IMG/VR virus record: IMGVR_UViG_3300011969_000080 | Direction: 5' to 3' (one strand) | Origin: an uncultured virus (IMG/VR IMGVR_UViG_3300011969_000080) | Taxonomy: Duplodnaviria; Heunggongvirae; Uroviricota; Caudoviricetes | DNA: 20,000 nucleotides | Shown here: piece after piece, positions 1,572-17,137 of the stretch | Layout: every line of letters begins with the position of its first letter | How positions within the stretch are numbered: the stretch's first letter is position 1 | Notes under the pieces: model-generated | Told to the model about the DNA's origin: nothing | The model's database searches: none | Seen by the model: the letters and a program-made list of their open reading frames with translations, nothing else | Position numbers and translations under genes: made by a program

Positions 1572-2267
1572 ATGACCCGATCAGGCGGACGACCCGCCCC
1601 CGTAGACGCCAAAGCTCACGAACTACTCGTGGCGTGGGTAGCTGCGCGCGATGCCTACATTGCCGCGCTGGTCGACCTTACGGCGCATCACGCCGCGTGC
1701 GCCCAGGGTGGCCGCACCCCACCCGACGGGACCTTCCGGCTTCGGCGTGCCCGCCGGCGTGCGGACAAGGCCGCTCTCGCCAGCACTCGGCGGTACGACA
1801 AGCGCTACGAACAGTGCCTGCATGCGTTCACCGACGCCCGGGCTGCGGGCGACCTCTACCCGCTGCACGGCGCTACCGTCGAGGAGATAGAGACTCGCGC
1901 AGCTGCGGGCCAACGCGGGTGGGGCACTTGCACGCCACGCGAGGCACTGGCAGCGTACGCTGCCACGCGCGGTGGTGAGGACCGGGCGCTTGCCAAGGCC
2001 GAAGCCACATGGCGCGGCCCCACTGCCGTGGTGGACCCGAGTCCCTTCTGGAAGACACACCTTTTCATGGACTTCGTCCCCACGTTCCGCGCCGAAGAAG
2101 CCGCCGCCTTCACCCGCAGGGTTGTCACCAAGACCTACGAGGATGCTGGCCTGCACGCCGAAGCGGCTGTGTTCCAGCGCCTCGCCGACAACGGTGTCAC
2201 AGACGCCGACCAGCTCGAGGCCGCCATCTCCGCGGTCTGCACCCCGGCGTCTGCCTCGCACCGCTGA
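1572..2267 (+). CDS. Hypothetical protein; apparent two-unit fusion related to the array family
   Basis: Two head-like motifs (AHELLVAWVAA and TPREALAAY) and the array-type tail LEAAISAVCTP. ATG lies 8 nt after the class I motif. Confidence 0.7.
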   Translation: MTRSGGRPAPVDAKAHELLVAWVAARDAYIAALVDLTAHHAACAQGGRTPPDGTFRLRRARRRADKAALASTRRYDKRYEQCLHAFTDARAAGDLYPLHGATVEEIETRAAAGQRGWGTCTPREALAAYAATRGGEDRALAKAEATWRGPTAVVDPSPFWKTHLFMDFVPTFRAEEAAAFTRRVVTKTYEDAGLHAEAAVFQRLADNGVTDADQLEAAISAVCTPASASHR

Positions 2268-2328: not shown

Positions 2329-3033
2329 ATGACCACCGACCCGGGCAGCGCGCCCACGCCGTGCCACCACCTGTACTACCGCGAGAGCTGGCCCGCCCAC
2401 GCCTTCCGGGAAGGGGTAGCCGCGTGGGACCGCGTGCGGTACAGCCTGCTGTGGCGTTTCTGGTGGGGCCCACGCAACCGGCGAATAGAGGACCGCGAGG
2501 CTGGGGCGGTTACGGACTGGGTGGCTGAGGCGAACTGGCCGCCCGGCCAGTACGGCGGGTACCTGAGGTGCGCCCAGTGTACGGCCGCCGTCAGCAACAC
2601 ACAGGAACAGCTCAGCGACCACCCGTCCGCCCACATCCCGGCCCTGTACAACCCGTTCACGGCCCCGAACGGGTGGTGCATCGACGCGGACATCGCCGGG
2701 CTCGTGGCCGGCCTGAACAGCCTCGGCCTCGAAACTGGCACAAGCTGCCAGGGGCACGCACCTGGGAAGGGGTACGGCGGGGAAGGCTGCTGTTGTAGCT
2801 CCGACAGCACCTGTGGCTGGGCGTACCTGACCCTCGGCCCAGGTGTCATGGAGCAGTTCCTTGCTGCCACCAGGATCGCCGGGGTGCCTGTGACCCCGGA
2901 CAGCCGCTGGTTGGGGCGCCAGATGCGTTGGACCGGTGCCCGGTTCGACCGGGAATGCATCCCCGCGCTGACTGCGCTGTTCCCGCACCCGGGCGGCGAC
3001 TGGGCGCCGGTCCCGGTGGCCTACGACCGCTAG
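2329..3033 (+). CDS. Hypothetical protein with a TYW3/Taw3-like motif
   Basis: IDADIAGLVAGLNSLGLETGTSCQGH resembles the D-x2-I-x2-L-x3-N...T-x2-SC-x-G motif of TYW3-like domains common in phages. Start chosen from the promoter motif. Confidence 0.6.
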   Translation: MTTDPGSAPTPCHHLYYRESWPAHAFREGVAAWDRVRYSLLWRFWWGPRNRRIEDREAGAVTDWVAEANWPPGQYGGYLRCAQCTAAVSNTQEQLSDHPSAHIPALYNPFTAPNGWCIDADIAGLVAGLNSLGLETGTSCQGHAPGKGYGGEGCCCSSDSTCGWAYLTLGPGVMEQFLAATRIAGVPVTPDSRWLGRQMRWTGARFDRECIPALTALFPHPGGDWAPVPVAYDR

Positions 3034-3178
3034 GGCTGATGTCCCGCTGCGGAACCACCGGGCAGTGCCCGCCCGCCCCCGGAGAGCACAGTCAGCCCGC
3101 GACCCTACCCATTACCGGGAGGCATCGACAACCAAATGGGAACTGGCCCCCAGCGGCTAGACTGGGAGGCTGCGCACG

Positions 3179-3206
3179 TTGCGCTGCCCCGCGCGGCGCG
3201 CACAGT
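3179..3206 (+). promoter_or_regulatory. Class I promoter-like motif (TTGCGC-N16-CACAGT), leadered gene
   Basis: Exact 16-nt spacer; GGGAG RBS before the ATG at 3247. Confidence 0.6.
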
Positions 3207-3246
3207 AGTGGGCAGGGGACGACCCCGCCGCAGACAGGGAGCACAC

Positions 3247-4197
3247 ATGGCCAAGCACACCGACGAGGGGACCGCGGCGGACGCCGTGCGCCAGTTCCGC
3301 CAGGACGACCTGGCCAGTGCTAGCGCCAAGTGGGACCGTGTGGCTGCCGCAGTGGAGGCGGACGTCCGTAGTGAGCAGGAGATCGAGGAAGGTCTCCTAG
3401 CCCAGCTCGGGCTCAACCCCGGGGGAGGGCCCGACCCCACCGACAACCTGCGCCTGTCCCGGCTCCACCCGCCAGCGCGAAAGCGCGCCAAGGCCCTGAT
3501 AGCTGGCGCCCGAGAGGCCCGCGAGGTGCGGGCCGCCCAGCCGTCTGCGCCTGAGGACGGCCCGGCCGCGCAGGCAGAGTACGACCAGACCCCCGAGCTC
3601 CGGGAGCTGCTCGCTGCGGCGGCGGCGTCCCAGCCCACCAAGCGGACGGCGTCCCAGGAGCAGGCCCTGGCCCGCATCCGTGCGGCAGCACCCGCGGACC
3701 GGGTATCCCCGCGCGGCGCGAAGCTCACCCTCGAGGAGGCGTGCGACCGCCTGGGCCTGGACACAGGCCGAATCCGCACACTGGCCGAAGAGGGGCGCCG
3801 GGCAGTGCTCCTCTCGCCCGAGGTGTACGCGGAGTACGTGGACGAGCCAGACGACTTCGTAGACGTCGATGACGAGCTCGACCCAGAGGACCGCGCGATG
3901 CTCCTGGCCCGGCTGGCAGACCCCTCCCCCGGCATCCCGCTGGATGAGGTCATCCGCGAGCTCGGCTTCGACCCGCTCGACTTCAGGGGCAGCCCCCACC
4001 CGCCTGCCCGGGTGTGGCTGCTGTACGACGCCGGCGATCTCGTGGCGGCGTACAGCACGGAGGCCGCCGCTGAGACTGCGCGCAAGGTCTACGCCGCCCG
4101 GGTGCAGGCCGAGCTGGACGCGGAGGACCCGCCCCCGGCGGTGGCGATGGTCGTGTACCACTACATCGAGGTCTGCCCTATCGAGGTGCGGGACTGA
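3247..4197 (+). CDS. Acidic mosaic hypothetical protein with antitoxin-like segments
   Basis: RBS GGGAG. AVLLSPEVY and GIPLDEVIRELG resemble Phd/YefM- and RelB-type antitoxin C-terminal segments (recognised by eye). Confidence 0.65.
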   Translation: MAKHTDEGTAADAVRQFRQDDLASASAKWDRVAAAVEADVRSEQEIEEGLLAQLGLNPGGGPDPTDNLRLSRLHPPARKRAKALIAGAREAREVRAAQPSAPEDGPAAQAEYDQTPELRELLAAAAASQPTKRTASQEQALARIRAAAPADRVSPRGAKLTLEEACDRLGLDTGRIRTLAEEGRRAVLLSPEVYAEYVDEPDDFVDVDDELDPEDRAMLLARLADPSPGIPLDEVIRELGFDPLDFRGSPHPPARVWLLYDAGDLVAAYSTEAAAETARKVYAARVQAELDAEDPPPAVAMVVYHYIEVCPIEVRD

Positions 4198-4270
4198 CAG
4201 CTTTCGCCCCTTGGGGGCCACAGCCTGAGGCCCGGATGGGGGCGCGGGCCCGCCGTCGCCCAAGCGGTAC

Positions 4271-4298
4271 TTGCGGTTGCGACAATCGCGCGAACGGT
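4271..4298 (+). promoter_or_regulatory. Class I promoter-like motif, array block A
   Basis: TTGCGG-N16-AACGGT-N7-ATG(4306). Confidence 0.65.
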
Positions 4299-4305
4299 AC
4301 CGGGC

Positions 4306-4716
4306 ATGATCCAGCTGCCGGAGCCCCAGATGGCACCGCACGAGGCGATGACCGCGTGGGGCGCCGCGGTAGCCGTCGCCCGGGCGGCGTGGGTGCCCTT
4401 CCTTGCGGCCTCCGTGGCCCACGACGATGCCTCTGCGGAGTACTACACCCGCCCCGGCGCCCCGGCGCCGACCGCGGCCAGCGCCGATGCCCTGTTTGCC
4501 GCCAGGCGGGTGGTGGAGGACGCCTTCGTGGTCTATGACGCCGCGTGCTGCACCGCGACGGGCGCCCGGGAGCGGGCTGCGGAGTCATACGTCGCCGCGG
4601 GGCTATTCGCTTCCGTGCCGTCCCTGCTGTCGTTGTTCCCGCGCACGCTGGACGGCTACAGCCCGGACCTCGAGGGCGGCCTGGCCGCGCTGCTGTTGGC
4701 CCCGGTGCGGCCGTGA
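4306..4716 (+). CDS. Array paralogue 1 (block leader, extended N-terminus)
   Basis: MIQLPEPQMAPHEAMTAWGAA...PDLEGGLAALLLAPVRP. Confidence 0.85.
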   Translation: MIQLPEPQMAPHEAMTAWGAAVAVARAAWVPFLAASVAHDDASAEYYTRPGAPAPTAASADALFAARRVVEDAFVVYDAACCTATGARERAAESYVAAGLFASVPSLLSLFPRTLDGYSPDLEGGLAALLLAPVRP

Positions 4717-5048
4717 CACCGCACGAGGCTTTCGCGACCTGGGTGGCCGCCAAGGCGGAGGAGGACCGGCTGGTCACTGAGGACCGCGTGTGGACGGTGC
4801 GGGAGGCCGCCGGGCGGTTCCGTGTGGTCGACTACGAACCGCTGCAATCCGCCGTCCTGGCGGCCGCGCTGGCCCGCCGGAAGGTCATGGCCACCTACCG
4901 GGCCACTGGGTCACCCGCCGCTGCCCGCCTGTTCTGGGATCTGACTGGCGGCGTGGACGGCCTGCTAGAGCCCGGGGACCGGGCCATTCCCGCCACCGAG
5001 ATTGAGCACGTCATCGACGCCCTGTTTTCCGACCCGGTGGCGCCATGA
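4713..5048 (+). CDS. Array paralogue 2
   Basis: GTG start overlapping the previous TGA; (M)TPHEAFATWVAA...IEHVIDALFSDPVAP. Confidence 0.82.
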   Translation: MTPHEAFATWVAAKAEEDRLVTEDRVWTVREAAGRFRVVDYEPLQSAVLAAALARRKVMATYRATGSPAAARLFWDLTGGVDGLLEPGDRAIPATEIEHVIDALFSDPVAP

Positions 5049-5404
5049 CACCACACGAGGCAATGGTTGTGTGGGGCGCCGCCACGGCGTCGTACCTGGA
5101 AGCACGCGCCGCCTCTGACAGCGCCCGCCGGGCGTGGTTTCTGTCACTGGTGGCAGGTCCGGGCTTCTATGACAACCCGGTAGCCCCCGCCGCGGTGGAC
5201 GCCACGCATTCTCGCTCCGTGCTCGCGTACACCGTCTGCCAGCGGGCCCGCGCCGCTGTGTGTGATGCCTACGTTGACGCTGGCATGCCGATGGCCGCGA
5301 GGCTGCTAGTCCAGCTGAACCCGCGGGGCGTGTTTGCGGCCGGCGGGCCGGGGCGCACTGAGGCCCTCATCGGTGCGCTGCTGATGGCTCCGGTGCGGCC
5401 GTGA
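5045..5404 (+). CDS. Array paralogue 3
   Basis: MTPHEAMVVWGAA...EALIGALLMAPVRP; ATGA overlap. Confidence 0.85.
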   Translation: MTPHEAMVVWGAATASYLEARAASDSARRAWFLSLVAGPGFYDNPVAPAAVDATHSRSVLAYTVCQRARAAVCDAYVDAGMPMAARLLVQLNPRGVFAAGGPGRTEALIGALLMAPVRP

Positions 5405-5414
5405 CCCGCCCGCC

Positions 5415-5442
5415 TTGCGCTATGGGTGGTAGCGCGGACGGT
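5415..5442 (+). promoter_or_regulatory. Class I promoter-like motif, array block B
   Basis: TTGCGC-N16-GACGGT-N8-ATG(5451). Confidence 0.7.
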
Positions 5443-5450
5443 ACTGTGAC

Positions 5451-5861
5451 ATGACACACCCGCCGGAGCCCCCAACGACACCCCACGCCGCGCTGGCGGC
5501 ATGGGGCACCGCCGTAGCCATCGCGCGGGTGGCGTGGGTGACATTCCACGCGGCCGAGGCCACCCACAACAAAGCTGCGGCGGCGTACTGCCGCTACACC
5601 GGTCCCACAGACGCCGTCGAGGCGGGGCTTTTCAAGGCAATAGGGGCCGCAGACACGGCGGAGGAGGCCACCTACGCGGTCTACGACGACGCGGCCGAGG
5701 TTGCGGTAGTCGCCCGGGCCGCAGTGTGTGCCGCGTACGACCACGCCGGGTTCCCGCAGGCCTTCCGGGCACTGGAGACCATCGCCCCCCGCTGGGGGGA
5801 CTGGGCCCCCGACCTCGAGGCGACCCTGGCCGCGCTGCTGGCGGAACCGGTGCGGGCATGA
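5451..5861 (+). CDS. Array paralogue 4 (block leader)
   Basis: MTHPPEPPTTPHAALAAWGTA...PDLEATLAALLAEPVRA. Confidence 0.85.
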   Translation: MTHPPEPPTTPHAALAAWGTAVAIARVAWVTFHAAEATHNKAAAAYCRYTGPTDAVEAGLFKAIGAADTAEEATYAVYDDAAEVAVVARAAVCAAYDHAGFPQAFRALETIAPRWGDWAPDLEATLAALLAEPVRA

Positions 5862-6244
5862 CGCCGCACGGGGCGATGATGGCGTGGGGTGCCGCGGCCA
5901 CCACCGCGCGAGAGGTGCTGGCGTCATTCCACGCGGCCGAGGAAGCCTACGACACAGCCGGGCGGGCGTGCTGCAGCTACAGCGGCCACTCCGGGGTAGT
6001 CGAGGCAGGGCTCCTCAAGGCGCAAAGGGCCGCAGGCACGGCGGAGATGCGCGCCTACGCCGCCTACTACGGGGCGCGCGAGGTCGCCGTGTCCGCACGG
6101 GCCGCGGTGTGCGCCGCGTACACCCACGCGGGGTTCCCGCAGGCGGTGCGGGCCCTGGACACCATCGCCCGCGACGAGCTTGACTGGTCCCCCGGCCTCG
6201 AAGACGCCATGACTGCACTGCTGTCGGCCCCGGTGCGGGCATGA
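5858..6244 (+). CDS. Array paralogue 5
   Basis: MTPHGAMMAWGAA...PGLEDAMTALLSAPVRA; ATGA overlap. Confidence 0.85.
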   Translation: MTPHGAMMAWGAAATTAREVLASFHAAEEAYDTAGRACCSYSGHSGVVEAGLLKAQRAAGTAEMRAYAAYYGAREVAVSARAAVCAAYTHAGFPQAVRALDTIARDELDWSPGLEDAMTALLSAPVRA

Positions 6245-6300
6245 CACCACACGGGGCAGTCATTGACACCGTGCTCGCCCCTCCCGCCGCCACCCCCTGA
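6241..6300 (+). pseudogene. Empty array cassette: 19-aa head+tail fusion MTPHGAVIDTVLAPPAATP
   Basis: ATGA-coupled start, head MTPHGA joined in frame to a tail VIDTVLAPPAATP*, with the whole variable middle absent. Confidence 0.75.
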
Positions 6301-6305
6301 GGGCC

Positions 6306-6333
6306 TTGCGCTGGGACCGGCCGCGCGGACAGT
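6306..6333 (+). promoter_or_regulatory. Class I promoter-like motif, array block C
   Basis: TTGCGC-N16-GACAGT-N8-ATG(6342). Confidence 0.7.
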
Positions 6334-6341
6334 ACTAGGAC

Positions 6342-6647
6342 ATGACCCCGGCACCAGATCCCCAGACGACGCCACGCAGCGCCCGCAGCGCCTTCTTCCA
6401 TCAAACCATGCGCCGCCTCGAAGTGGAGGCGTCGGATGCAAGCGAGGCGTACCTAACTGCGGGCTGGGACGCCGCGGTGGCCGCCGAGCGGGCCGCTGAG
6501 GGCTGCTGGGATGTGGCGGTGGACTACCCGCGCCCGGAGGACCACGCGGCCGCGGACGCCATCTGGGAGGCGCTGGATGACGCGGCGTACGCCACCGCAG
6601 ACGCCCTGACGTGCGCTCTGTTCGACCCACCCGTGGACTCCCGATGA
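6342..6647 (+). CDS. Array paralogue 6 (divergent block leader)
   Basis: MTPAPDPQTTPRSA...DALTCALFDPPVDSR. Confidence 0.75.
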   Translation: MTPAPDPQTTPRSARSAFFHQTMRRLEVEASDASEAYLTAGWDAAVAAERAAEGCWDVAVDYPRPEDHAAADAIWEALDDAAYATADALTCALFDPPVDSR

Positions 6648-7039
6648 GCGCCCTGACGCCGCACGAGGCGATGGTCACGTGGGGCGCCGCGGTGGTCGCC
6701 GCCCAGGCAGGGCGGGTGCGGTTCCACGCAGCCGAGGGGGCCTATGCCGCGGCTTCGAGAGCACGCCGCAGCCACGGCGACCGCGCGGGGGTCCCCCATG
6801 AGACACTATTCAAGGCGGAAGTGGCCGCCGGCGAAGCGGAGATGCGCGCCTGGGATGCCTTCTACGATGCGGCCGGGGCAGCCACGGTCGCCCGGAGCTC
6901 GGTGTGTCGCGCATACGTCCACGCTGGGGTCCCGCAGGCAGTGCCAGCCCTGGACACTGCCGCTCCCGGGGGGCTTGGCTGGTCCCCGGGCCTGGAGGAC
7001 GCCCTGTCCGCGCTGCTGCGGGACCCGGTGTGGCCATGA
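6644..7039 (+). CDS. Array paralogue 7
   Basis: MSALTPHEAMVTWGAA...PGLEDALSALLRDPVWP. Confidence 0.85.
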   Translation: MSALTPHEAMVTWGAAVVAAQAGRVRFHAAEGAYAAASRARRSHGDRAGVPHETLFKAEVAAGEAEMRAWDAFYDAAGAATVARSSVCRAYVHAGVPQAVPALDTAAPGGLGWSPGLEDALSALLRDPVWP

Positions 7040-7425
7040 CCCCGCACGAGGCGATGGCCGCGTGGGGCATAACCGTAGCTGCCGCGCAGGCGGCACGTGT
7101 GCTGGCCGACCACGCGGGAGACGCCTACGACAAGGCCGCACTGGCAGAGGATGCGTGCTACGGCCACTCAGAGGACGTCGAGGAGGAGCTCGTCACAGTC
7201 GCCGGGCGGGCGGCTAGGGGGGCGGCGAACGACGCATACGCCACCTACGCCGGGGCGTTCGAGGCCGCCGTGTCCGCCCGAGCCGCGGTGTGCGACGCCT
7301 ACGTCAGCGCCGGGCGCCCACGGGCAGTGTTGGCTCTGGGTGCTATCGCCTGCGGTGCCCTCGACTGGTCCCCGGACCTCGAGGACGCGCTGGACGCGTT
7401 GCTGCGGGACCCGGTGCGGCCATGA
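7036..7425 (+). CDS. Array paralogue 8
   Basis: MTPHEAMAAWGIT...PDLEDALDALLRDPVRP. Confidence 0.85.
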   Translation: MTPHEAMAAWGITVAAAQAARVLADHAGDAYDKAALAEDACYGHSEDVEEELVTVAGRAARGAANDAYATYAGAFEAAVSARAAVCDAYVSAGRPRAVLALGAIACGALDWSPDLEDALDALLRDPVRP

Positions 7426-7778
7426 CAACACACGCGGCGATGGTCACCCTGGACGGCGCCATCCAGGAGTACCGACTGGCGGAGGACTGCGAGGTGGCCG
7501 CCCGCCACGCGCTGGCTGGGACCCACGCAAACGACTCGAACGCCACCCTGCTACCCCACATTCAGGCCGTAGAGAGCGCGCAAGCGGCGCAGGTCGGCGC
7601 CTCCGCTGCCGTCTGTGCCGCCCACCGAGCCGCCTTCTACGCCTACGCGGAGAATGGCCCTCCCGGGGCCGCGCTGCTGCTGCTCAGACTTATGGGCGTG
7701 GACATGGACGCCGTGGACGCGCCAGCGATTGAGTCGGCCATAAACGCGGTGTTCACCCCACCAGCCGCGACCGCCTGA
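7422..7778 (+). CDS. Array paralogue 9
   Basis: MTTHAAMVTL...IESAINAVFTPPAATA. Confidence 0.82.
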   Translation: MTTHAAMVTLDGAIQEYRLAEDCEVAARHALAGTHANDSNATLLPHIQAVESAQAAQVGASAAVCAAHRAAFYAYAENGPPGAALLLLRLMGVDMDAVDAPAIESAINAVFTPPAATA

Positions 7779-7787
7779 TCCGGGGCC

Positions 7788-7815
7788 TTGCGCTGCGGGC
7801 AGTCGCGCGGACGGT
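7788..7815 (+). promoter_or_regulatory. Class I promoter-like motif, array block D
   Basis: TTGCGC-N16-GACGGT-N8-ATG(7824). Confidence 0.7.
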
Positions 7816-7823
7816 GGGTGGGT

Positions 7824-8180
7824 ATGACACTACCGCCCGAGCTCCCGATGACAGCACACGCCGCGCTCCTGGTTGCGGCCTGCGCAGAGTACCGCCGGGC
7901 AGCGCAACTCTTCACCGCCGCGAGCGCCACCCGCGACGCGGCGATCATGGCCGGCGCCGGCCGGGCCGGGGAGCACGACCTGATAGTCCAAGACGCTGCA
8001 TACACGTCCGCCCACGCCGCGCTGTGCGAAGCTCGGCTCATATACGCGGACAGCGCCCCGGCCGGGTCTGCGCAGCTGCTACTTCAACTGACGGACCCGC
8101 TGATGTGCATTGCTAACGCGCCCGCCATGGCGGCAGCCGTCGCCACCGTGTTCGCCCCACCCGCGGGGCCCACCCAATGA
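7824..8180 (+). CDS. Array paralogue 10 (block leader)
   Basis: MTLPPELPMTAHAALLVAACAEY...AAAVATVFAPPAGPTQ. Confidence 0.82.
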   Translation: MTLPPELPMTAHAALLVAACAEYRRAAQLFTAASATRDAAIMAGAGRAGEHDLIVQDAAYTSAHAALCEARLIYADSAPAGSAQLLLQLTDPLMCIANAPAMAAAVATVFAPPAGPTQ

Positions 8181-8560
8181 CGAGGCTGCAGGGACCACCA
8201 CTGACACCGCACGCCGCCATGGCAGCGTGGGCCACGGCCTGCTCGGCTTACGACGCCGCGCGCACCACTACGCGTGCCGCTGTAGCGGCACGCGAGGCGC
8301 AGCCGGAGGCGTACGCGGGACCGGCCACCCCGGCCCGGGACGCCCTGCGCCGGAACTGGCTGGCCCTTGTACCAGCCCAGAACGCGGCGGAAAGGGCTGA
8401 GATCTCCGCCTACGGCGAGGCGTACCGGGCGTACTATGCTACTCACGGGCGGGACGTGGCCAACCTCTTCATGGGGCTCGTAGCCACCCGGCGGGGCCCC
8501 GGCCAGGTTGAGGCCATCATCGCGGCACTGCTCGCCCCACCCACAGGGCCAGCCCAATGA
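8177..8560 (+). CDS. Array paralogue 11
   Basis: MTRLQGPPLTPHAAMAAWATA...VEAIIAALLAPPTGPAQ. Confidence 0.85.
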   Translation: MTRLQGPPLTPHAAMAAWATACSAYDAARTTTRAAVAAREAQPEAYAGPATPARDALRRNWLALVPAQNAAERAEISAYGEAYRAYYATHGRDVANLFMGLVATRRGPGQVEAIIAALLAPPTGPAQ

Positions 8561-8907
8561 CGCCGCAAGAGGCGATGGCCGCCTGGGCCATGGCCTGCTC
8601 GGAGTATGACGACGCCCAAGACGCCTACCGCGCAGCCGGGGCCGCCTACCGCGCAGCCGTCACGGGGCCCCTCACCGTCCGAAAGGAACTGATCACACGG
8701 GGTGGTCTCGCCGAGGGCGTCCTGGCCGCGGCACGCAAGGCGGCGCGCAGCGCCCACGCCCACGCGTTCCTGGCCTACAGCACAGCTCACGGGACGGACG
8801 TGGCCGACCTCTTCCTGCGCCTCGCCCCCACCCAGACTGTGTGCCCCGGGCGGGTCGAGGACGTCATCGCCGCCCTGCTCGCCCCGCCCACTGGGCCCAC
8901 ACGATGA
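8557..8907 (+). CDS. Array paralogue 12
   Basis: MTPQEAMAAWAMA...VEDVIAALLAPPTGPTR. Confidence 0.85.
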   Translation: MTPQEAMAAWAMACSEYDDAQDAYRAAGAAYRAAVTGPLTVRKELITRGGLAEGVLAAARKAARSAHAHAFLAYSTAHGTDVADLFLRLAPTQTVCPGRVEDVIAALLAPPTGPTR

Positions 8908-9296
8908 CACCCCATGAGGCGATGGCCGCCTGGGCCGGGGCCTGCGCAGAGTTCGAGTCCCTCGACGCGGAGCTCGACGCACTCACCGCAGCCCTCAGTC
9001 GGCCTGTATACGCGTCGGGACAGTTCCCGGGGTCCAAAGACCGGGCGTGGCTCGCCGCCTACGACGCTTACGCCATCGCCGCCCTGGTCGTCCGCCACGC
9101 ACACAGCGCCGCCTACTGCGCCTACGAGGACAGCGCCCCCGCGGGGGCCGCGCAGATGCTGGACCGGCTCGTGGGCGACAGGGTGTACGACACGGACGTG
9201 CTCGCCGTCGAAGCGGCCATCGCAGCGGTGCTCGCCCCACCGCTGACCCGCCTACCCTGCGTCGCCGCCAACCGGGTGGGCGGTGCGTGGACATGA
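8904..9296 (+). CDS. Array paralogue 13 (tail reads through the next promoter motif)
   Basis: MTPHEAMAAWAGA...VEAAIAAVLAPP plus a 17-aa extension spanning a degenerate class I motif (9257-9284). Confidence 0.82.
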   Translation: MTPHEAMAAWAGACAEFESLDAELDALTAALSRPVYASGQFPGSKDRAWLAAYDAYAIAALVVRHAHSAAYCAYEDSAPAGAAQMLDRLVGDRVYDTDVLAVEAAIAAVLAPPLTRLPCVAANRVGGAWT

Positions 9297-9700
9297 CACA
9301 GCTGCCGGAGACCCCGATGACACCCCACGAGGCAATGGTCGCGTGGGGCGCCGCAGTGGCGGCGACACAGGTGGCCGCGGAGGGGGTACGCGCCGCCGCG
9401 GTCGCCTACGTGGCCGCCTCCGGGGAGTACTACGACACCCCGCCTACCCAGGAGGCCGCGGAGGGGCGCCGGGCAGCGGCGGTGGTTGCCGCCGGGGTGG
9501 AGACGGGCGCCCTGGCCACCTACGACCGCGCGTGCGAGCACGCCATGTTCCTCCGGGGTGCGGTGTGCGACGCGTACGCCCGCGCCGGGTTCCTATGGGC
9601 CTTCGAGGCCCTGGGGACACTCGCCCCCGACAGGCTGGGCTGGACCCCCGACCTCGAAGACGCCCTGGCCGCGCTGCTGGCAGCACCGGTGTGGCCATGA
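9293..9700 (+). CDS. Array paralogue 14 (block leader)
   Basis: MTQLPETPMTPHEAMVAWGAA...PDLEDALAALLAAPVWP. Confidence 0.85.
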   Translation: MTQLPETPMTPHEAMVAWGAAVAATQVAAEGVRAAAVAYVAASGEYYDTPPTQEAAEGRRAAAVVAAGVETGALATYDRACEHAMFLRGAVCDAYARAGFLWAFEALGTLAPDRLGWTPDLEDALAALLAAPVWP

Positions 9701-10056
9701 CGCCCCACGAGGCGATGGTCGCGTGGGGCGCCGCCTGCGCCCTGGAGAGCGGGGCCCGCGCCGCCAGGGAGGCCGCGTTCGAGGCGGCGCTCGCCGTGCC
9801 CTTCGGAGGGTCGCCTAGCCGAGCCGGGATGGTGGCCGCGTTGGAGGGCTACGAAGCTGCGCTGGACGTGTGGCAGGCCGCGCAAGCACAGGCCCGCGCG
9901 ACCAGCGTCACAGCCTGCCGGGCCTACGGCCGGGCGGTGGGCCAGCACGCCACGGACCTGCTCCAGTTGTTGTGCCCGCTGGGGCTCACAGACGACGCGG
10001 GGGCGGTAGAGGACGCCATAGCCGCGACGTTCGCCCCGGCCGCCGTGACCGCCTGA
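9697..10056 (+). CDS. Array paralogue 15
   Basis: MTPHEAMVAWGAA...VEDAIAATFAPAAVTA. Confidence 0.85.
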   Translation: MTPHEAMVAWGAACALESGARAAREAAFEAALAVPFGGSPSRAGMVAALEGYEAALDVWQAAQAQARATSVTACRAYGRAVGQHATDLLQLLCPLGLTDDAGAVEDAIAATFAPAAVTA

Positions 10057-10171
10057 CCCCCGGCGTCTGTCCCGGGCGAACCACACCAAACAGTCGTGAA
10101 CCTGAGATGTGGAGGGGCTCTAACCTGAGATCCGGAAGCCGCGGCCCGCACTCCCCCACCCTGCCACCAGC

Positions 10172-10226
10172 GTGCCGCTACGGCAGCCCCCACCAATGAC
10201 GCCTGTTCTGTTGGGGAGCACCGGGC
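10172..10226 (+). repeat. 55-bp three-block motif, copy 2
   Basis: Blocks match copy 1 at 13/14, 6/6 and 17/17, with unrelated spacers of identical length. Confidence 0.8.
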
Positions 10227-10231
10227 TGGGG

Positions 10232-10259
10232 TTGTGCTCTCCGGCCCGGCGCACAAGGT
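10232..10259 (+). promoter_or_regulatory. Class I promoter-like motif (TTGTGC-N16-CAAGGT)
   Basis: Exact spacer; closely similar to the copy at 10556. Confidence 0.6.
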
Positions 10260-10303
10260 AGTGGCCAGGCGGAACCACCGCCAGCGCCGACAAGGAGGCC
10301 CCA

Positions 10304-10486
10304 ATGATCAGTAACCTCACCAGCGGCCGGCAGGTAGCCGTGACGTCCGTCCTGCCACTCGGCGAGATGCCTGATGGCCTGGCCCGGAAGCTCCAGCGCT
10401 ACTTCGGGGAGGCACTCCGCATGGAAGAAGCCCGCACGGCCCAGCAGCAGACGCCCGCCCCGTACCGCCGGTGCATCCGCAACTGA
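10304..10486 (+). CDS. Small hypothetical protein (60 aa)
   Basis: Strong RBS AAGGAGG at 10292-10298, downstream of a class I motif. Confidence 0.65.
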   Translation: MISNLTSGRQVAVTSVLPLGEMPDGLARKLQRYFGEALRMEEARTAQQQTPAPYRRCIRN

Positions 10487-10503
10487 CCTCGGCGCTGAGC
10501 CCG

Positions 10504-10547
10504 CGTCCGCCAAGTTTCCGCCCAGTTGCTCCCAGACTTGGCGGACG
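10504..10547 (+). terminator. Hairpin, possible intrinsic terminator
   Basis: Perfect 12-bp stem CGTCCGCCAAGT / ACTTGGCGGACG just after the stop codon. No U-tract and a long 20-nt loop. Confidence 0.4.
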
Positions 10548-10555
10548 GGCAGGGG

Positions 10556-10583
10556 TTGTGCTCCACCGGCCGGCGCACACGGT
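10556..10583 (+). promoter_or_regulatory. Class I promoter-like motif (TTGTGC-N16-CACGGT)
   Basis: Exact spacer; GGAG RBS before ATG 10629. Confidence 0.62.
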
Positions 10584-10628
10584 AATAGCTGGCGGGAGAC
10601 CCCCGCCGCCACAGACCCGGAGTACCCC

Positions 10629-11719: not shown

Positions 11720-12715
11720 GTGACCCACGACAGCACCCAAACCGGCAAGCTGCGAGCTCGCCAGTCCTGGCGACGCTGGCTCATTCCGGCCGCCGCGGCG
11801 GCGCTGGTGGTCCTGGTAGGCGCCTGCAGTGGCGGTGACACCCCGGGCACACCCGCCAGCACGCCCGGGGCAACAACGACAACCCCGCAGCCTACGGCCC
11901 CGCACGCCGGCGTGCCTGTGTCACCCCCACCTACCCCAAACGGGACCGTTACCGTGACCACCACCCGCGTGACACTGCCAGCATACTTCGTCGGTGCCAA
12001 CTCTGGGGCCGGCACGACGTTCGGCCTCTACCGGGAGTTCGTGCGAACCACGGTTCCCGCTGGCGCCACGCCGGCACAGAAGGCCAGGGCCGCCGTCGCA
12101 GTGGCGATGAACGCCCAGCCATTCACGAACTATGAGCCCTACGTGCAGCCCTGGTCCGGGACCAAGGTCGAGAACGTCACGGTCACCCCGAGCCTGATCA
12201 CCATCACGCTCAGTGGGCCCGGCGCGACCGGCTTCACCTCTGAGCAGACCAGGCTCGGCGTGCAGGAACTCGTGTGGACCGCGACCGCCGCCGTCGGTCG
12301 GGGAAACATCCCGGTCAAGTTCGTGCTCACCGACGGATCCACGAAACTGTTCGGCACCTACCCCACTGCCCTGGCCTACATCCGGCCGGTCAGGGATCTG
12401 GCGTATCTGGACCTTGCACCCATCTGGATCACCCTCCCCGAACGTGACCAAGTGCTCCGCGCCGGAGTGCCGGTGGTGGCCAAGGGTGAATCCTGCGCCT
12501 TCGAAGCCACAACGGCGTGGACGCTGAGCAGGAACGGTAGCACCGTCAAGTCCGGAACAACCATGGCCACCAGCGGCTGCCCGCTGCGCGGCACGTGGAG
12601 CGTAGCCCTGGGCAAACTCGGACCCGGCCGGTACACATTCCGAATGTACGAGGCCAGCATGCGGGAGGGCGTGGGCGTGGTCGCCGAAACGTCAAAACCG
12701 TTCACCGTCAAGTAG
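11720..12715 (+). CDS. Lipoprotein with GerMN-like and Gmad2 immunoglobulin-like domains
   Basis: Signal peptide with lipobox LVGAC, Pro/Thr linker, LYREF / QELVWTATAA (GerMN-like), and IWITLP...GESCAFEATTAW...GTW (Gmad2-like). Confidence 0.8.
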   Translation: MTHDSTQTGKLRARQSWRRWLIPAAAAALVVLVGACSGGDTPGTPASTPGATTTTPQPTAPHAGVPVSPPPTPNGTVTVTTTRVTLPAYFVGANSGAGTTFGLYREFVRTTVPAGATPAQKARAAVAVAMNAQPFTNYEPYVQPWSGTKVENVTVTPSLITITLSGPGATGFTSEQTRLGVQELVWTATAAVGRGNIPVKFVLTDGSTKLFGTYPTALAYIRPVRDLAYLDLAPIWITLPERDQVLRAGVPVVAKGESCAFEATTAWTLSRNGSTVKSGTTMATSGCPLRGTWSVALGKLGPGRYTFRMYEASMREGVGVVAETSKPFTVK

Positions 12716-12777
12716 CACCACCTGGTGGGCGCGCCAGCAGCCCCTATTTGTGCCACAGCCTGTGGCCCAAATGGCCA

Positions 12778-12811
12778 GTGGGTCTCCCGGCGGGCCTCGG
12801 CCGCCCACAGT
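12778..12811 (+). promoter_or_regulatory. Class II promoter-like motif (GTGGGT-N22-CACAGT-N7-ATG)
   Basis: Same geometry at 14942, 17104, 18495, 19002 and 19903 (N26 at 17705). Confidence 0.7.
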
Positions 12812-13280
12812 CCACGTCATGAAGCCCCCTAAGCACTGCGCCGTCCCCGGCTGTGGCACTGGCCCGCACCCCGAGCGGCGCAAGGTGGTGGGAAACCCGG
12901 CCTGCTGCGCCACGCACAAGAACACGCCCGCCGCCAGCCTGCCTACCGTGGTCGCCCGGACCCCCGCGCTCCCGCCCACTGCCCCCTACCGGGTTCCGGG
13001 GGTCTTCAACAGGAAGCAAGATGAGAAGCTTCACGCCGTCATTGCTGCCCTCCTGTCGCCGGGGATGCAGGTGCTGCCGGCGGACGGGCACCAGGCGTGG
13101 CCCCTGTACGTGGCCAGCTACGGCGAGTTCAGCAGGGTCTGGCTGACCAACACCCGAGGAGGCGCCGGCACCATTTCAGTCAAGGCGTACGAGTTGGCCC
13201 CCGCGGACGCCGTGGTTCTCCCCAGCCCCGAGGAAGTCGAGGCGGCCGTGGCCCGTGGCGATGTCAGTGTGTACCACGTG

Positions 13281-14667
13281 CCCCCTCCACGAACGAGTGG
13301 GTTTTATAGGCGACACAACTCGCGCGGTTCTGTCAGGTTCTCGGAGGGACTGCGTGCTTGCAAAGGGTGTACACCCGGGCCCCACCCGGGAGTAGGACTA
13401 CCGGGTCGGCGCTGTGAACCTGCGCGGTGCGACGCGTTCGGTAGTCCGGATGCCCGTCTGAGCTCACGGCAGCCGGCGTCCGTGGCAGCTGCGTGAGGTG
13501 AACTCTCAGATGCTTAGCCCAGACACCCGGCTGGTCACAGCGGTTGATGTTGAGGCGCATCAGCGCAAGGAGGTTGTTCATCCGTGACATGTTGCGGAAC
13601 GTCCACCGCCGCGACCGGAGGTGCTGACGCACAACCGCCAGCTTGGGGTCCAACGCACCCGTGGAGTAGTGCGCCGGTATCCCCGCACGCCAGGCGGTCT
13701 GAGCTGTCAGCCGCTTGTCCCACTTCCGCACCCAGCTCCCGGCCGTCGGCAGGTCCGCGCCCAGCACGGCATCCCGGAACGCGGCCCACTCCTGCGGGCT
13801 GTGGAAGGCGTCTTTGAGCAGGGCCCGGAAGTGGTTGCCCATCCTGCGTTGCCCGTCGGCGCGCAGGGCGTCAGCAGCCCTGACGTACAGGTGGTGCTCG
13901 CACCTGTGCTGCTTGACCCGTGGCCATACCGCGCGCACCGCGGCCGCTATCCCGCCATCGGCGTCAGAGACGACCAGCTCCGGCCTGCCAGGCAGCGTCC
14001 GTAGGAACGCCTTCCACGCTTCGGTGTCGTGCGCCTTCGCGGCGGTCAGCGCCCACAGACGGCCGCGCACCTGGCCGGCCGGGTAGCCCCACACGGCAAG
14101 GATGGAGAACAGGTCCTCGCTGCCAGAGCCGCGCGGGTTCGTCCACTTGAACAGGGTGGAGTCCAGCACCACGGTCTGCGGCCACTCCGGTTCGGCGTAC
14201 GCGGCGGCAAGGGCGGGACCGTAGCGGCCTACCCAGTCCGAGGCGCTCTGGCCACTCACCCTCCGGTCGGCGTCGCCGTCGCGAGAGACAACAAGCCTCT
14301 TGACCGCGTCGATGTAGGTGGCCCCACGGGCAACATCAACGAGCGCGGCGGCCACTTCATCAAGGGTGTACACGCTCCCGGGGGTGGCCGCTAACCCGTA
14401 GCCATCTTTGCCGCACTGGTCACAGGTGTGCCCGGCCTCGTCGTGGCGCGGCACCGCGAACGTGAACCCGTGCTTGTCTGGCTTCCCGTCCGGCCGGGTG
14501 AAGAAACAGCGCAGGCGAGCCCGGTGCGGTGTGCCGTAGGTGCCCTCTCGGTGAACTACGGAGTCCGGATGCTCCGCGCATCGCGGCAAGGTCACATCGG
14601 CGGGGCGAGACACCTCATGATTCTACCATGTGGCTAAGACATAAAACCCACTCGTTCGTGGAGGGGG
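13281..14667 (-). mobile_element. IS256-family-like (Mutator-type) insertion sequence, 1387 bp
   Basis: Perfect 27-bp TIRs CCCCCTCCACGAACGAGTGGGTTTTAT (13281-13307 and 14641-14667); 8-bp TSD ACCACGTG (13273-13280 and 14668-14675). Confidence 0.93.
13333..14613 (-). CDS. IS256/Mutator-like transposase with N-terminal zinc-binding region
   Basis: VVLDST; LVVSDADGGIAAAVRAVWP...HRCEHH (IS256 D...CxxH signature); lies between the TIRs. Confidence 0.85.
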   Translation of the reverse strand: MSRPADVTLPRCAEHPDSVVHREGTYGTPHRARLRCFFTRPDGKPDKHGFTFAVPRHDEAGHTCDQCGKDGYGLAATPGSVYTLDEVAAALVDVARGATYIDAVKRLVVSRDGDADRRVSGQSASDWVGRYGPALAAAYAEPEWPQTVVLDSTLFKWTNPRGSGSEDLFSILAVWGYPAGQVRGRLWALTAAKAHDTEAWKAFLRTLPGRPELVVSDADGGIAAAVRAVWPRVKQHRCEHHLYVRAADALRADGQRRMGNHFRALLKDAFHSPQEWAAFRDAVLGADLPTAGSWVRKWDKRLTAQTAWRAGIPAHYSTGALDPKLAVVRQHLRSRRWTFRNMSRMNNLLALMRLNINRCDQPGVWAKHLRVHLTQLPRTPAAVSSDGHPDYRTRRTAQVHSADPVVLLPGGARVYTLCKHAVPPRT

Positions 14668-14941
14668 ACCACGTGAGCTCGCGGGCCTGGTGGCTCAGCG
14701 TCCGGCGCCGCCACGTGGGTGAGCACCCCACAAAGCGCGCAGCCCTAGCCAGCGCAGCTGTCGCAGTTGGCGTGCTCGACTGGCAATCCTACGCCTACTG
14801 GGAGCTCCACAAGCTTCCCGAGGACCACCTCGACCTGGCGATCCAGCTGGCCCCCAGATGCGCCAGTGTCGGCGACCTGCTCGCCGCGGTGAGTGCCCTG
14901 TACACGCCGCCGGCCGCCACCGCCTGAGCTCCCCCGGCGGG

Positions 14942-14975
14942 GTGGGCGCTCTACGTCCCCGCGGGCCCCCACGGT
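14942..14975 (+). promoter_or_regulatory. Class II promoter-like motif
   Basis: GTGGGC-N22-CACGGT-N7-ATG(14983). Confidence 0.7.
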
Positions 14976-14982
14976 CGGTCCC

Positions 14983-15726
14983 ATGACCACCACCACGAAC
15001 GCTCTCAAGTGCGGCCACAACGGCTGCCCCACCAAGCCCACCCCATCCCTGCGCACCCCAGGCAAGCCGACGGACCTCGCCTTCTGTGGCGACCACCAGG
15101 GTGAGGCCCGCCGCGTGGCGCCAGCAGCCACCCGGCTGCAGCCGGCCGCAGCCCCCGTAGTTGCCCCGATGTTCGCGGGGGACAAGAGCACCGCGAAACG
15201 CGAGGCCCTCATGGGCTCCCTGGTCGAGGCGCTGATCCCGGCAGAGACTCGCGTGATAGTTGCCGGCACACACAACGGCGCCCGCCCGCCGTGGCCCGTC
15301 TACTACGACGACAACACGTTCCCCGGCATGGCCCGACCCGGCTCTGCCTCAGGCTGCGGCATTATCACCCCCGTGACCCGCATCGCGCCCGCCACCGCCG
15401 AGCTGCCCACCCCTGGGGAGGTCGCCGCTGCCGTGAAGTCCGGCATCGTTCGGGTGGCCAAGCCAACCACGGGCTACCCCTACCAGCGGGCCATGTGGGA
15501 CGTGCGCGTTGCCGGGGACCGCGTTGGCTCGTACACGACCAAGCGGGACGCGATGACGATGGTGCCGGCCGCCATGGCCGTCGCTGCGTGGCACGCGCCG
15601 CTGGCCGACATCCCCACCGAGCACCTCGGGGCCGCCGCCCAGATCGCTCAGGAGTACGGAAGCCCCGCCGAGCTCGTCGTGGCCGTGGCCGCCCTGTACG
15701 CCGACCCGGCCGACACCGCCAGCTGA
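14983..15726 (+). CDS. Zinc-finger-header protein with array-like C-terminal tail
   Basis: CGHNGC...FCGDH header; paralogue of the interrupted gene; ends LVVAVAALYADPADTAS. Confidence 0.82.
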   Translation: MTTTTNALKCGHNGCPTKPTPSLRTPGKPTDLAFCGDHQGEARRVAPAATRLQPAAAPVVAPMFAGDKSTAKREALMGSLVEALIPAETRVIVAGTHNGARPPWPVYYDDNTFPGMARPGSASGCGIITPVTRIAPATAELPTPGEVAAAVKSGIVRVAKPTTGYPYQRAMWDVRVAGDRVGSYTTKRDAMTMVPAAMAVAAWHAPLADIPTEHLGAAAQIAQEYGSPAELVVAVAALYADPADTAS

Positions 15727-15782
15727 ACGGGGACACCAGCCCCTTTGGAAAGTTTTGGAACTTTTGGACTTTTTGGAAACCC
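15681..15782 (+). repeat. About 102-bp direct repeat, copy 1 (gene tail plus AT-rich TTTTGGA tandem)
   Basis: Colinear with 16977-17078; includes four (T)TTTGGA units at 9-10 bp spacing. Confidence 0.8.
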
Positions 15783-15810
15783 TGCTCGCCGGCCCCCACG
15801 GTCATGTGTC

Positions 15811-15891
15811 ATGGCCACCCCTCGCAAGACCTGCGCCCCGCCTGGCCGCGCTACCCGACCGGGTGGCCGTCCTTCCCAGAAAGATGCGTGA
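15811..15891 (+). pseudogene. Orphan 5' remnant of a zinc-finger-header gene
   Basis: CACGGT-N8-ATG; MATPRKTCAPPGRATRP aligns with MKPPKHCAVPGCGTGP (12819), with the second Cys changed to Arg, then an early stop. Confidence 0.55.
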
Positions 15892-15895
15892 CCCC

Positions 15896-16909
15896 ATGCA
15901 CAGCGAAACCGCAAACCCGCCGGTACGAAACGCGCAGCGGCGGGCCCGCTATGCGGCAGCGCTCACCCTCCTGCTCGCCAGCGCGCTGTCCGTGGCAGCC
16001 CTGGCCACGTCGCAGGAGGTTGCATCCGCCGCAACAACCAGCATCAACCAGTGCAACAACATTGACGGCAGCCCGAGCGGCGCCACGACAGGACTAACCT
16101 GCACCGTGACCGTCGTCAACACGATCAACGGAAACACCCGCGGCTCAACAACCACCGTAACCCGGCAATGTTCCCTAGGACCGTGCCCGCCCGGTAATGG
16201 CACGTTCACGACCACATCCACATCCCTGGTCACCACCGTCACCCAGTGCAACGGCTCAGCCAACGACGCGGCACCACCCCTGGTCACGTGCCGCGTCAGC
16301 GTCACCAACAACATCAGTGCGGGTACGCCCGGCGGAGCGCCCGTGAGCACGGCGAGCGTCAACCAGTGCGTAGGCTCCGGCACCGGCGGCGGCAAGTACG
16401 ACGGGTCCGGCCCGCTCATTTGCAACCCGTACCCGGCCAGCACAACAGGGGCCACCGTCACCCAGTGCAACGGCTCAGCCACGGGCGGCGGCTCAACGGT
16501 GGCCTGCTCGGTGGCGCCCACATCCAAGGTCAGCGCCGCAATCCCGCTGCGCGTCAACCAGTGCAACGGCACCGGCAACAAGGGCGGAACCCTGGTCACG
16601 TGCTCGGTCAGCATCACCACCAACATCACCCGCGGCGCCACAGCAGGAACCCCTGGCACGCCAGGCACACCCCAGGGCGCACCCGGAACCTCAGGCACAC
16701 CAGGTGCGGCGCCTGGCGCCGGCGGCGCGCCGGGAACCTCAGGCGGGCCGGCGCAAATCACCCGCGTGCCCACCGGCGGAATAGCGTCCGGTGACGGCTC
16801 AACTTCCGGCCTACAACACGGCGGGCTGCTCGGGCTCGGCGCCGGCCTGCTCCTGGCTGCGACAATCACCTTCCGCCTCCGGGGCCTCGCCGGACGTTAC
16901 GGTCGATGA
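15896..16909 (+). CDS. Secreted Thr/Cys-rich repeat surface protein with probable sortase-type anchor
   Basis: Signal peptide, repeated (V/I)(T/N)QC(N/V)G(S/T) units, G/T/P linker, VPTGG motif followed by a hydrophobic helix and basic tail. Confidence 0.8.
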   Translation: MHSETANPPVRNAQRRARYAAALTLLLASALSVAALATSQEVASAATTSINQCNNIDGSPSGATTGLTCTVTVVNTINGNTRGSTTTVTRQCSLGPCPPGNGTFTTTSTSLVTTVTQCNGSANDAAPPLVTCRVSVTNNISAGTPGGAPVSTASVNQCVGSGTGGGKYDGSGPLICNPYPASTTGATVTQCNGSATGGGSTVACSVAPTSKVSAAIPLRVNQCNGTGNKGGTLVTCSVSITTNITRGATAGTPGTPGTPQGAPGTSGTPGAAPGAGGAPGTSGGPAQITRVPTGGIASGDGSTSGLQHGGLLGLGAGLLLAATITFRLRGLAGRYGR

Positions 16910-16976
16910 GCGAAAACCCCGAACGGGGCGCAGGAGGCCGCCAACGCCTGGCTATCAAGGTAGTCGCCGGCCCCGC

Positions 16977-17078: not shown

Positions 17079-17103
17079 GCACCCATCCTTCCCACCCGGG
17101 AGG

Positions 17104-17137
17104 GTGGGTGCTCCACGTCCCCGTCGGCGCCCACGGT
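17104..17137 (+). promoter_or_regulatory. Class II promoter-like motif
   Basis: GTGGGT-N22-CACGGT-N7-ATG(17145). Confidence 0.7.

Follow-up and report, generated by a model that had tools for sequence, protein, structure and literature searches.

A 20,000-nucleotide stretch of DNA from the uncultured Caudoviricetes record IMGVR_UViG_3300011969_000080 (IMG/VR), hereafter the window, carries an operon-like set of 15 old paralogous genes together with one longer relative upstream. The 15 open reading frames (ORFs) fill positions 4306–10056 on the plus strand and encode products of 101–136 aa. Judged by sequence searches, they represent an undescribed and very rare family; the members are small soluble proteins, mostly acidic, with a predicted fold of a long two-helix hairpin. 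We tentatively favour, with slightly less than even confidence, reading the array as a repertoire of partner-specific binding or neutralising proteins that act in conflict (immunity or counter-defence), with rare recombination at the head and tail of the genes. The stretch is present in three runs of one soil metagenome study, one of which may be its origin; none of the runs that contain it is listed as RNA. The members are as follows:

4306–4716, plus strand: m01, 136 aa, clade A, long N-terminal form (MIQLPEPQ-MAPHEAM); opens the array
4713–5048, plus strand: m02, 111 aa, GTG start in a GTGA overlap; divergent, grouping weakly with the long-type external members P0032 and P0033
5045–5404, plus strand: m03, 119 aa, ATGA overlap; isolated in the tree
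5451–5861, plus strand: m04, 136 aa, clade A, long N-terminal form; after a 46-nt motif-bearing spacer
5858–6244, plus strand: m05, 128 aa, clade A
6342–6647, plus strand: m06, 101 aa; the most divergent member (decayed head motif, isoelectric point (pI) 4.2); after a 97-nt motif-bearing spacer
6644–7039, plus strand: m07, 131 aa, clade A
7036–7425, plus strand: m08, 129 aa, clade A; used for structure prediction
7422–7778, plus strand: m09, 118 aa, clade C
7824–8180, plus strand: m10, 118 aa, clade C, long N-terminal form; after a 45-nt motif-bearing spacer
8177–8560, plus strand: m11, 127 aa, clade D, long N-terminal form
8557–8907, plus strand: m12, 116 aa, clade D
8904–9296, plus strand: m13, 130 aa, clade C; extra 15-aa tail
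9293–9700, plus strand: m14, 135 aa, clade A, long N-terminal form
9697–10056, plus strand: m15, 119 aa; closes the array; grouping weakly (87/24) with the last member of the related array L003 (see below)

An initial annotation, made from the sequence alone, had described 15 coupled paralogous ORFs, and this description holds. Eleven of the 14 junctions are 4-nt stop/start overlaps (ten ATGA, one GTGA), and the remaining three are gaps of 46, 97 and 45 nt that all contain one conserved motif. The G+C content of third codon positions (GC3, 0.8–0.9) tracks exactly the frames of the 15 ORFs, against a G+C background of 66–75% in the window and 71–75% in the array region. The encoded proteins can be aligned end to end at pairwise identities of 20–57%. 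The conserved junctions at DNA level that had been pointed out before were recovered as a repeat (families D3 and D5) at seven to eight junctions, with 61–83% identity.

Elements of the same family and of its putative control region are found outside the array proper:

1572–2267, plus strand: longer relative, the 16th family gene, 231 aa; family domain C-terminal, same motif upstream
4270–4298, plus strand: conserved motif CTTGCG-N13-CGCGRACRGT, 7–8 nt before the ATG
1535–1563, 5414–5442, 6305–6333 and 7787–7815, plus strand: the other exact copies of this motif

The longer relative is recovered by a hidden Markov model (HMM) built from the 15 proteins (E 2e-10) and by one built from 36 family sequences (E 1.6e-19). 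The strong match lies in its C-terminal half, with a weak second match N-terminal of it, and the protein resembles the external long forms P0032 and P0033. The five exact copies of the motif compare with 0.17 expected. All are on the plus strand, all end 7–8 nt before an ATG, and together they occupy the three array spacers and the stretches preceding m01 and the longer relative. A sixth copy with two mismatches precedes the gene at 3247–4197, where it overlaps a repeat of family D12. A scan of the motif for the sigma-70 consensus returned 0 sites; we infer that it acts for the element as promoter or operator. The array would then comprise about five sub-operons, each opening at a motif-bearing spacer, and within a sub-operon translation would proceed by termination-reinitiation at the ATGA/GTGA overlaps. 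The 4-nt overlaps are compatible with this type of coupling (PMC6728339). An 8-aa N-terminal extension (MTxxPEPP) is found on the members that follow a spacer and also on m11 and m14, long forms that now overlap the preceding gene, and the 15-aa extra tail of m13 is the read-through of a decayed spacer copy (repeat D7, 9254–9336). Because of the extensions on m11 and m14 and the spacer remnant in m13, the array seems to have been assembled from blocks of a spacer plus a long-head gene.

The protein anatomy was described by conservation, i.e. the fraction of rows with the commonest residue, across the 36 family sequences in m08 numbering. The constant head, variable middle and constant tail recognised in the initial annotation are evident: the head (residues 1–13, TPHEAMxAWGAA) scores 0.71, the tail (residues 114–126, hEDAhxALLxxP) 0.59, and the hairpin turn (residues 42–47), the least conserved part and one with indels, 0.12. 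A third block not listed before spans residues 76–93 (A..ARAAVC.AY..AG, with an invariant Tyr) and scores 0.46. AlphaFold2, run on m08 with the 36 family sequences as input, returned a model with a mean predicted local distance difference test score (pLDDT) of 95.1 and a predicted template modelling score of 0.84. In this model, long antiparallel helices (3–41 and 48–91) are followed by a short helix (95–104), a loop and a C-terminal helix (115–123). Conservation and occupancy both collapse over residues 35–60, with an occupancy of 0–30% at the turn. Taken together, the modelled hairpin and the conservation profile identify the variable middle as the distal, length-variable part of the hairpin, which runs from midway along helix 1 through the turn to midway along helix 2. 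The A..AY..AG block sits at the end of helix 2, and the conserved parts would form a closed base of the hairpin in the model. No signal-peptide-like N-terminus or convincing membrane segment was detected in the array members. The pI is below 7 in 12 of the 15, and each member holds 0–3 Cys residues (at least one in 14/15). An ATCUN-type (amino-terminal copper- and nickel-binding) metal site at the mature T-P-H N-terminus was considered and ruled out, as Pro at position 2 is incompatible with it; the N-terminal extension in five members also counters it.

Matches to the model in an exhaustive structural search are generic hairpins, with a best Z of 9.2. Rop, FliJ, YscO, the colicin receptor hairpin and tubulin cofactor A resemble the predicted fold at Z 8.3–9.2, a range that is common for helical models, and share 8–14% sequence identity with it. 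The root-mean-square deviation is 1.8–2.4 over 85–98 residues for the ROP variant, the colicin E2 receptor domain and tubulin cofactor A (the lengthened ROP variant, at Z 9.2, gives 1.8 over 85 residues) and 5.0–6.4 over 103–104 residues for FliJ and YscO. Foldseek searches against PDB and BFVD returned nothing at E ≤ 1e-3, the ESM Atlas nothing above lead level for m08, and a sequence profile search of PDB nothing significant (best E 0.097). No function can be inferred from such generic hairpin matches.

Small multi-copy helical-hairpin proteins of Actinobacteria include the WXG100/Esx and PE families. WXG100/Esx proteins carry a W-x-G motif in the hairpin turn, and the type VII secretion signal is YxxxD/E. 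The size of the window proteins (about 100–136 aa), their hairpin and their actinobacterial host would suit small proteins related to type VII secretion, be it WXG100/Esx-like substrates, PE-like proteins or Lap-like partners of LXG toxins, multi-copy families of which occur in Actinobacteria and Firmicutes. However, none of the 36 family members matches WXG100 (PF06013) or a related Pfam model even at E ≤ 5, the sole conserved W-G is found at residues 10–11, outside the turn, and what comes after the invariant Tyr is xxAG or xDSAP, not the remainder of YxxxD/E. No secretion gene, whether for an EccC/FtsK-type ATPase or otherwise, could be recognised in the window, and we regard a relation to type VII secretion as quite improbable. 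An array of precursors of ribosomally synthesised and post-translationally modified peptides of the long-leader type, in which a conserved leader precedes a variable core, is scarcely credible. Many tandem small genes with a conserved N-terminus and Cys in nearly every product recall such arrays, but here both ends are conserved around a variable middle and the whole chain is confidently modelled as a hairpin. Moreover, the window contains no modifying enzyme, protease or transporter family, and Pfam gives no match to Nif11 or NHLP leaders.

The C-terminal subtypes that were distinguished initially re-emerge in the tree as clade A (m01, m04, m05, m07, m08 and m14; support 99/99), clade D (m11 and m12; 99/98) and clade C (m09, m10 and m13; 87/87). 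Members m02, m03, m06 and m15 fall outside these three clades, m06 being placed on a very long branch with its head motif lost.

The earlier statement that no known domain is recognisable was upheld in Pfam, where none of the 15 members has a match at the cut-off (E ≤ 0.01); at E ≤ 5, the 36 family sequences attract only 24 single, mutually unrelated matches. PHROGs and NCBIfam gave no relevant match for the array members scanned, and none of 19 window proteins, three array members among them, matched a PADLOC-DB defence model. Pfam and PHROGs also turned up no match to a known anti-defence inhibitor (Acr, Ard, Ocr and others). When a family profile was compared with 1,835,955,588 representative proteins, 27 were found at E ≤ 1e-3, eight of them the window's own and 19 external. 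Because the longest matching protein has 226 aa, no fusion to another domain is seen. The ten external clusters checked hold 1–3 members each, all metagenomic or environmental. A family pattern applied to 185,579 species genomes yielded 58 candidate stretches, and pattern scans of IMG/VR for clades A, C and D yielded 241, 320 and 151, respectively; none was confirmed in either search. Whole-window megablast comparison with PLSDB plasmids and INPHARED phages gave no match.

A metagenome scan provided three true loci for comparison, L001, L002 and L003; a further candidate, a 181-kb contig of a metagenome-assembled genome (MAG), is a non-member by either HMM. L003 (3.9 kb) is syntenic with the window through the following neighbours of the array:

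2329–3033, plus strand: Cys/His-rich gene, 234 aa; syntenic with the array in L003 (67% identity)
3247–4197, plus strand: gene of 316 aa immediately preceding the array, with a syntenic counterpart in L003 (46% identity)
10090–10260, plus strand: non-coding block after the array, common to L003 (about 3440–3640); contains AACCTGAGAT twice, 23 nt apart

In L003, homologues of the first two genes, in this order, lead into four overlapping or adjacent family members, which are followed by the same non-coding block as 3′ of m15 and by a homologue of the ORF at 12750–13496. Array content and order thus differ among relatives: 15 members are found in the window array, four in L003 and one each in L001 and L002, and the subtype order in L003 (clade C, clade D, m09 type, m15 type) is not collinear with that of the window. 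The single member of L001 has an 80-aa N-terminal extension. That of L002 has on one side a replication-type ATPase (AAA_25) with weak similarity to primase/helicase proteins of Streptomyces phages, and on the other a divergently oriented XRE regulator with a phage-type Dam methylase. Judged by shared record size, at least four members reside on a contig of 11,668 nt and at least three on one of 5,575 nt, and a 5,502-nt contig carries two long-type members along with two homologues of the Cys-rich gene. The 106-aa family member P0029 is listed for a contig 133,593 nt long, the same size as the longest recorded for the window's own proteins, and further members may sit elsewhere on the window's own contig.

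Comparison of the window with L003 also revealed a sharp breakpoint. The block formed by motif, start, extension and head (4263–4363) is identical at 89 of 101 positions, as opposed to 27/46 before and 20/53 after it. Since this block is shared and the first array gene belongs to clade A in the window and to clade C in L003, the same promoter-plus-head block is joined to different bodies. Such a fusion is what recombination in the head would produce, with constraint as the alternative.

The phylogeny indicates that the paralogues are old. Eight of the 15 members (m01, m04 and m09–m14) each group with an orthologue found on a different contig, in most cases strongly supported: 99–100% for m14/P0017, m13/P0007+P0010, m09/P0009 and m10/P0026, 94/79 for m01/P0004 and 99/94 for m04 with P0019 and the L002 member, followed by the weaker pairs m11/P0018 (93/67) and m12/P0024 (83/47). 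The pairing of m15 with P0031 is only weak. The grouping of these eight members with their own orthologues, found in other samples at 59–99% identity, implies that the duplications predate the split of these elements. The fraction of identical residues encoded by the same codon is 0.55 for the head, 0.59 for the tail and 0.49 for the middle, with 0.45 expected from codon usage. Because codon sharing is near expectation, the DNA conservation at the junctions is attributed mostly to protein conservation, and there is no sign in codon sharing of recent homogenisation between members.

Could these genes form a lineage-specific family that was duplicated and now drifts under relaxed constraint, without any specific repertoire function? 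The ratio of non-synonymous to synonymous substitution rates (dN/dS) of whole genes, 0.2–0.65, is high for bacterial genes, m06 has lost its head motif, and the surroundings are rich in orphan genes and insertion sequences (IS). Against this, all 15 frames are intact with high GC3, the head, tail and AY block are conserved across the 36 sequences, orthologues of eight members persist elsewhere, and the structure model is very confident; drift is considered improbable.

Amino-acid differences are clustered at both window sizes applied (20 and 30 residues) in three of seven near-orthologue pairs. In m13/P0007, 15 of 21 differences fall within 30 residues (p ~5e-5); in m14/P0017, eight of ten are clustered (p 0.002); and in m01/P0004, 16 of 38 fall within 20 residues (p ~5e-5). 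A further pair, m01/P0005, is clustered at the 30-residue window only (p 0.005, compared with 0.085 at 20 residues). In the repertoire reading, each member would be specific for a different partner, the hairpin would evolve fast, and rare events of unequal recombination in the conserved head and tail would meanwhile enlarge or shrink the array. The partners may be toxins, making the array one of immunity proteins, or host defence proteins, in which case a mobile element would employ it for counter-defence.

Several observations weigh against such a repertoire. Divergence is uniform in three of the seven pairs (m13/P0010, m10/P0026 and m09/P0009). Recent recombination has left no sign within the array: exact matches between members reach at most 21 nt, and the longest identical runs are all located in the head motif. 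The conserved head confounds a GENECONV-like permutation test, in which no pair passes Bonferroni correction. Constraint on regulation and on the protein, instead of exchange, could account for the conserved head block that window and L003 share. Regional dN/dS, which was estimated for six pairs by maximum likelihood and draws on some 60 codons per region, with synonymous divergence (dS) partly saturated, is never clearly above 1. The hairpin compared with the rest of the gene gave 1.12 vs 0.22 for m04/L002, 1.12 vs 0.27 for m04/m05, 0.40 vs 0.20 for m04/L001 and 0.50 vs 0.45 for m05/m07, whereas m05/m08 was unusable due to saturated dS and m09/L003 was dropped as mis-anchored. In the two least saturated pairs, the hairpin is thus close to 1 and the conserved parts are at 0.2–0.45, a pattern that fits fast or diversifying evolution of the hairpin, with positive selection left unproven by dN/dS. 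Two further runs from this soil study include minor contigs with a joint from 8163 to 8544 that skips 380 nt, about one unit, and with other joints inside the array; as these were taken at 85% likeness with sides of 30–183 letters, they may represent diverged relatives instead of array variants and lend weak support to array variation. The predicted fold is a generic hairpin that reaches no structural match beyond Z 9.2. Finally, Pfam, PHROGs, NCBIfam and PADLOC disclosed no toxin, secretion, defence, conjugation or virion gene in the 20 kb. In sum, the earlier proposal of a diversifying repertoire, expanded and shuffled by recombination, stands in part. The novelty of the family, differing content among relatives, the breakpoint after the head, the clustered differences and the fast hairpin agree with it; ongoing shuffling inside the array, dN/dS clearly above 1 and non-uniform divergence throughout do not emerge from the data.

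The gene coupling itself is ambiguous, and here the main rival has to be weighed. ATGA overlaps fit a structural complex as well as a repertoire, and passages in PMC10666635 note that ATGA-coupled pairs often encode subunits of heteromeric complexes, which counts as a further point against the repertoire. The members might thus be subunits or modulators of one machine or regulatory circuit (hetero-oligomeric bundles, Rop-like or anti-sigma-like regulators, chaperones), held at fixed ratios by coupling. With 4-nt overlaps at 11 of 14 junctions, the array resembles the tightly coupled, often heteromeric pairs described in parts of PMC6728339 and PMC10666635. Moreover, hairpins usually associate as four-helix bundles, the ROP variant, FliJ and YscO are among the best fold matches, and each of the eight paralogues with close relatives has been kept as its own orthologous lineage. 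Conversely, the copy number varies among relatives (15, 4, 1) and therefore counts against a fixed complex, as do the hypervariable tip with its indels, a dN/dS near 1 in two pairs and the extreme rarity of the family. A hetero-oligomeric or regulatory role is on balance deemed unlikely; if it were correct, the array would still represent a new family for the poorly known elements of soil Micrococcales.

Returning to the repertoire of binding proteins, the closest described analogue in organisation is given by the strings of immunity genes for type VII secreted toxins, esaG in Staphylococcus aureus and tipC in Streptococcus, with 12 esaG genes in strain RN6390 (Garrett et al. 2022, PMC9484751). 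As far as the passages cited from that study describe them, these strings share with the window array non-identical tandem paralogues, homology blocks (the gene end plus intergenic region in esaG/tipC) that alternate with variable regions, interspersed repeated spacers unrelated to the family, mosaic genes and a variable copy number, there between strains. The differences are as follows. No member of the window array has a sequence match to an immunity family, EsaG/DUF600 and TipC included, and no toxin or type VII secretion gene was recognised beside it. The homology blocks are far more diverged (at most 21 nt exact) with no recent recombination tracts found, and the genes overlap by 4 nt, whereas the same passages describe similar intergenic regions between the genes. 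The host is actinobacterial and the context looks mobile. Membership in the esaG/tipC group is not claimed, because no family match, linked toxin or sign of recent recombination was seen.

A second comparison concerns the polyimmunity and SUKH-type loci of polymorphic toxin systems, which the relevant passages in PMC3113570 and PMC3482391 depict as tandem, diverged small paralogues in conflict-related mobile regions, Actinobacteria included. The window family resembles them in these respects and differs by its all-helical hairpin, by having no Pfam Imm or SUKH match (one chance-level Imm71 match, E 0.074, was seen among the 36 family members) and by the lack of any toxin cassette seen with the array.

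A bolder proposal, which we consider possible yet doubtful, is that the array represents a new class of hypervariable helical-hairpin inhibitors on actinobacterial mobile elements. A constant base would carry a specificity tip of variable length, and a coupled repertoire of up to 15 or more specificities would be remodelled by cassette exchange between elements at the promoter/head block and the tail. If true, this would constitute an actinobacterial counterpart of immunity-gene strings without a linked toxin, and it might be an island of broad counter-defence or of “orphan immunity”. Where strings of small, diversified paralogues occur, they are a mark of genetic conflict, for instance over toxin immunity or counter-defence, and they have been a source of useful specific protein inhibitors. 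The simple, confident fold and the division into a constant base and a variable tip make partner-finding and specificity-swap experiments straightforward. The array also offers an actinobacterial case for how tandem repertoires arise and are remodelled with short shared blocks.

The genes and elements around the array look like a highly plastic, mobile-element-like region, a setting that counts in favour of the repertoire reading. Nearly all other ORFs of the window are orphans, and further indel variants occur among the contigs. Neither of the two genes upstream of the array (2329–3033 and 3247–4197) belongs to a recognisable family. The Cys/His-rich protein has invariant CxxC, DHxxAH, C.D and CQG motifs and three external relatives. 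Its AlphaFold2 model is poor (pLDDT 52), and both the top four structural matches (TYW3-like but weak, Z 4.7–5.6) and a weak tendency toward DUF6919-type clusters in the Atlas (scores 0.84–0.87) are to be taken as leads only; a tblastn search against plasmids and phages gave no match. The 3247–4197 protein shows weak sub-threshold matches to PaaA2 and sigma-70 region 4. The non-coding block at 10090–10260 has no Rfam match, and its predicted fold is no more stable than that of shuffled sequences (z +1.19).

At the left end, a TnpB gene (OrfB_IS605 plus a Cas12f1-like TNB domain; 1–1113) runs off the window, and an Rfam Transposase-2 RNA (53.9 bits, 1020–1086) overlaps its 3′ end. Because the contig depth here is two to four times that of the rest, the TnpB element is considered multi-copy in the sample. 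On the right, a complete IS (13281–14667) with perfect 27-nt terminal inverted repeats is flanked by the 8-bp target duplication ACCACGTG (span 13273–14675). It encodes a Mutator/IS256-like transposase on the minus strand (13333–14613) and interrupts the ORF at 12750–13496. Contigs in all three runs join 13272 to 14668, which indicates that the empty site is also present in the population.

A Gmad2/Germane lipoprotein gene (11720–12715) is the only window gene with relatives in genomes. These comprise 19 loci at 57–72%, mostly from Dermatophilaceae or Phycicoccus MAGs; the remaining ones are from Micrococcales, Actinomycetales or Actinomycetota, and there are no shared neighbours. It looks like a host-type gene stranded among orphans. 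These relatives point to a Micrococcales-like host, probably a soil actinobacterium of the Micrococcales. Part of the same gene shows a two- to fivefold higher contig depth.

In the right half of the window, a 591-aa minus-strand ORF (17909–19684) was judged probably spurious by its codon-position G+C pattern, which favours three plus-strand genes instead (17678–18460, 18536–18970 and 19043–19657). The 18536–18970 protein matches the phage family phrog_7422 (E 2e-12). All three runs include contigs that connect 18970 directly with 19897, 37 other letters taking the place of the third gene. Two runs contain contigs that link 12729 to 17732 across 23 other letters and 17760 back to 15006; these joins point to rearranged variants of the right half. 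Lastly, the promoter-like D12 repeat (TTGTGC..GCGCACAAGGTAGTGG type) occurs at 3169–3212, 10222–10265 and 10546–10589, in each case 35–40 nt before a gene (3247, 10304 and 10629, respectively), and contigs in two runs join 10262 to 10602, resulting in the loss of a 60-aa gene between two D12 copies.

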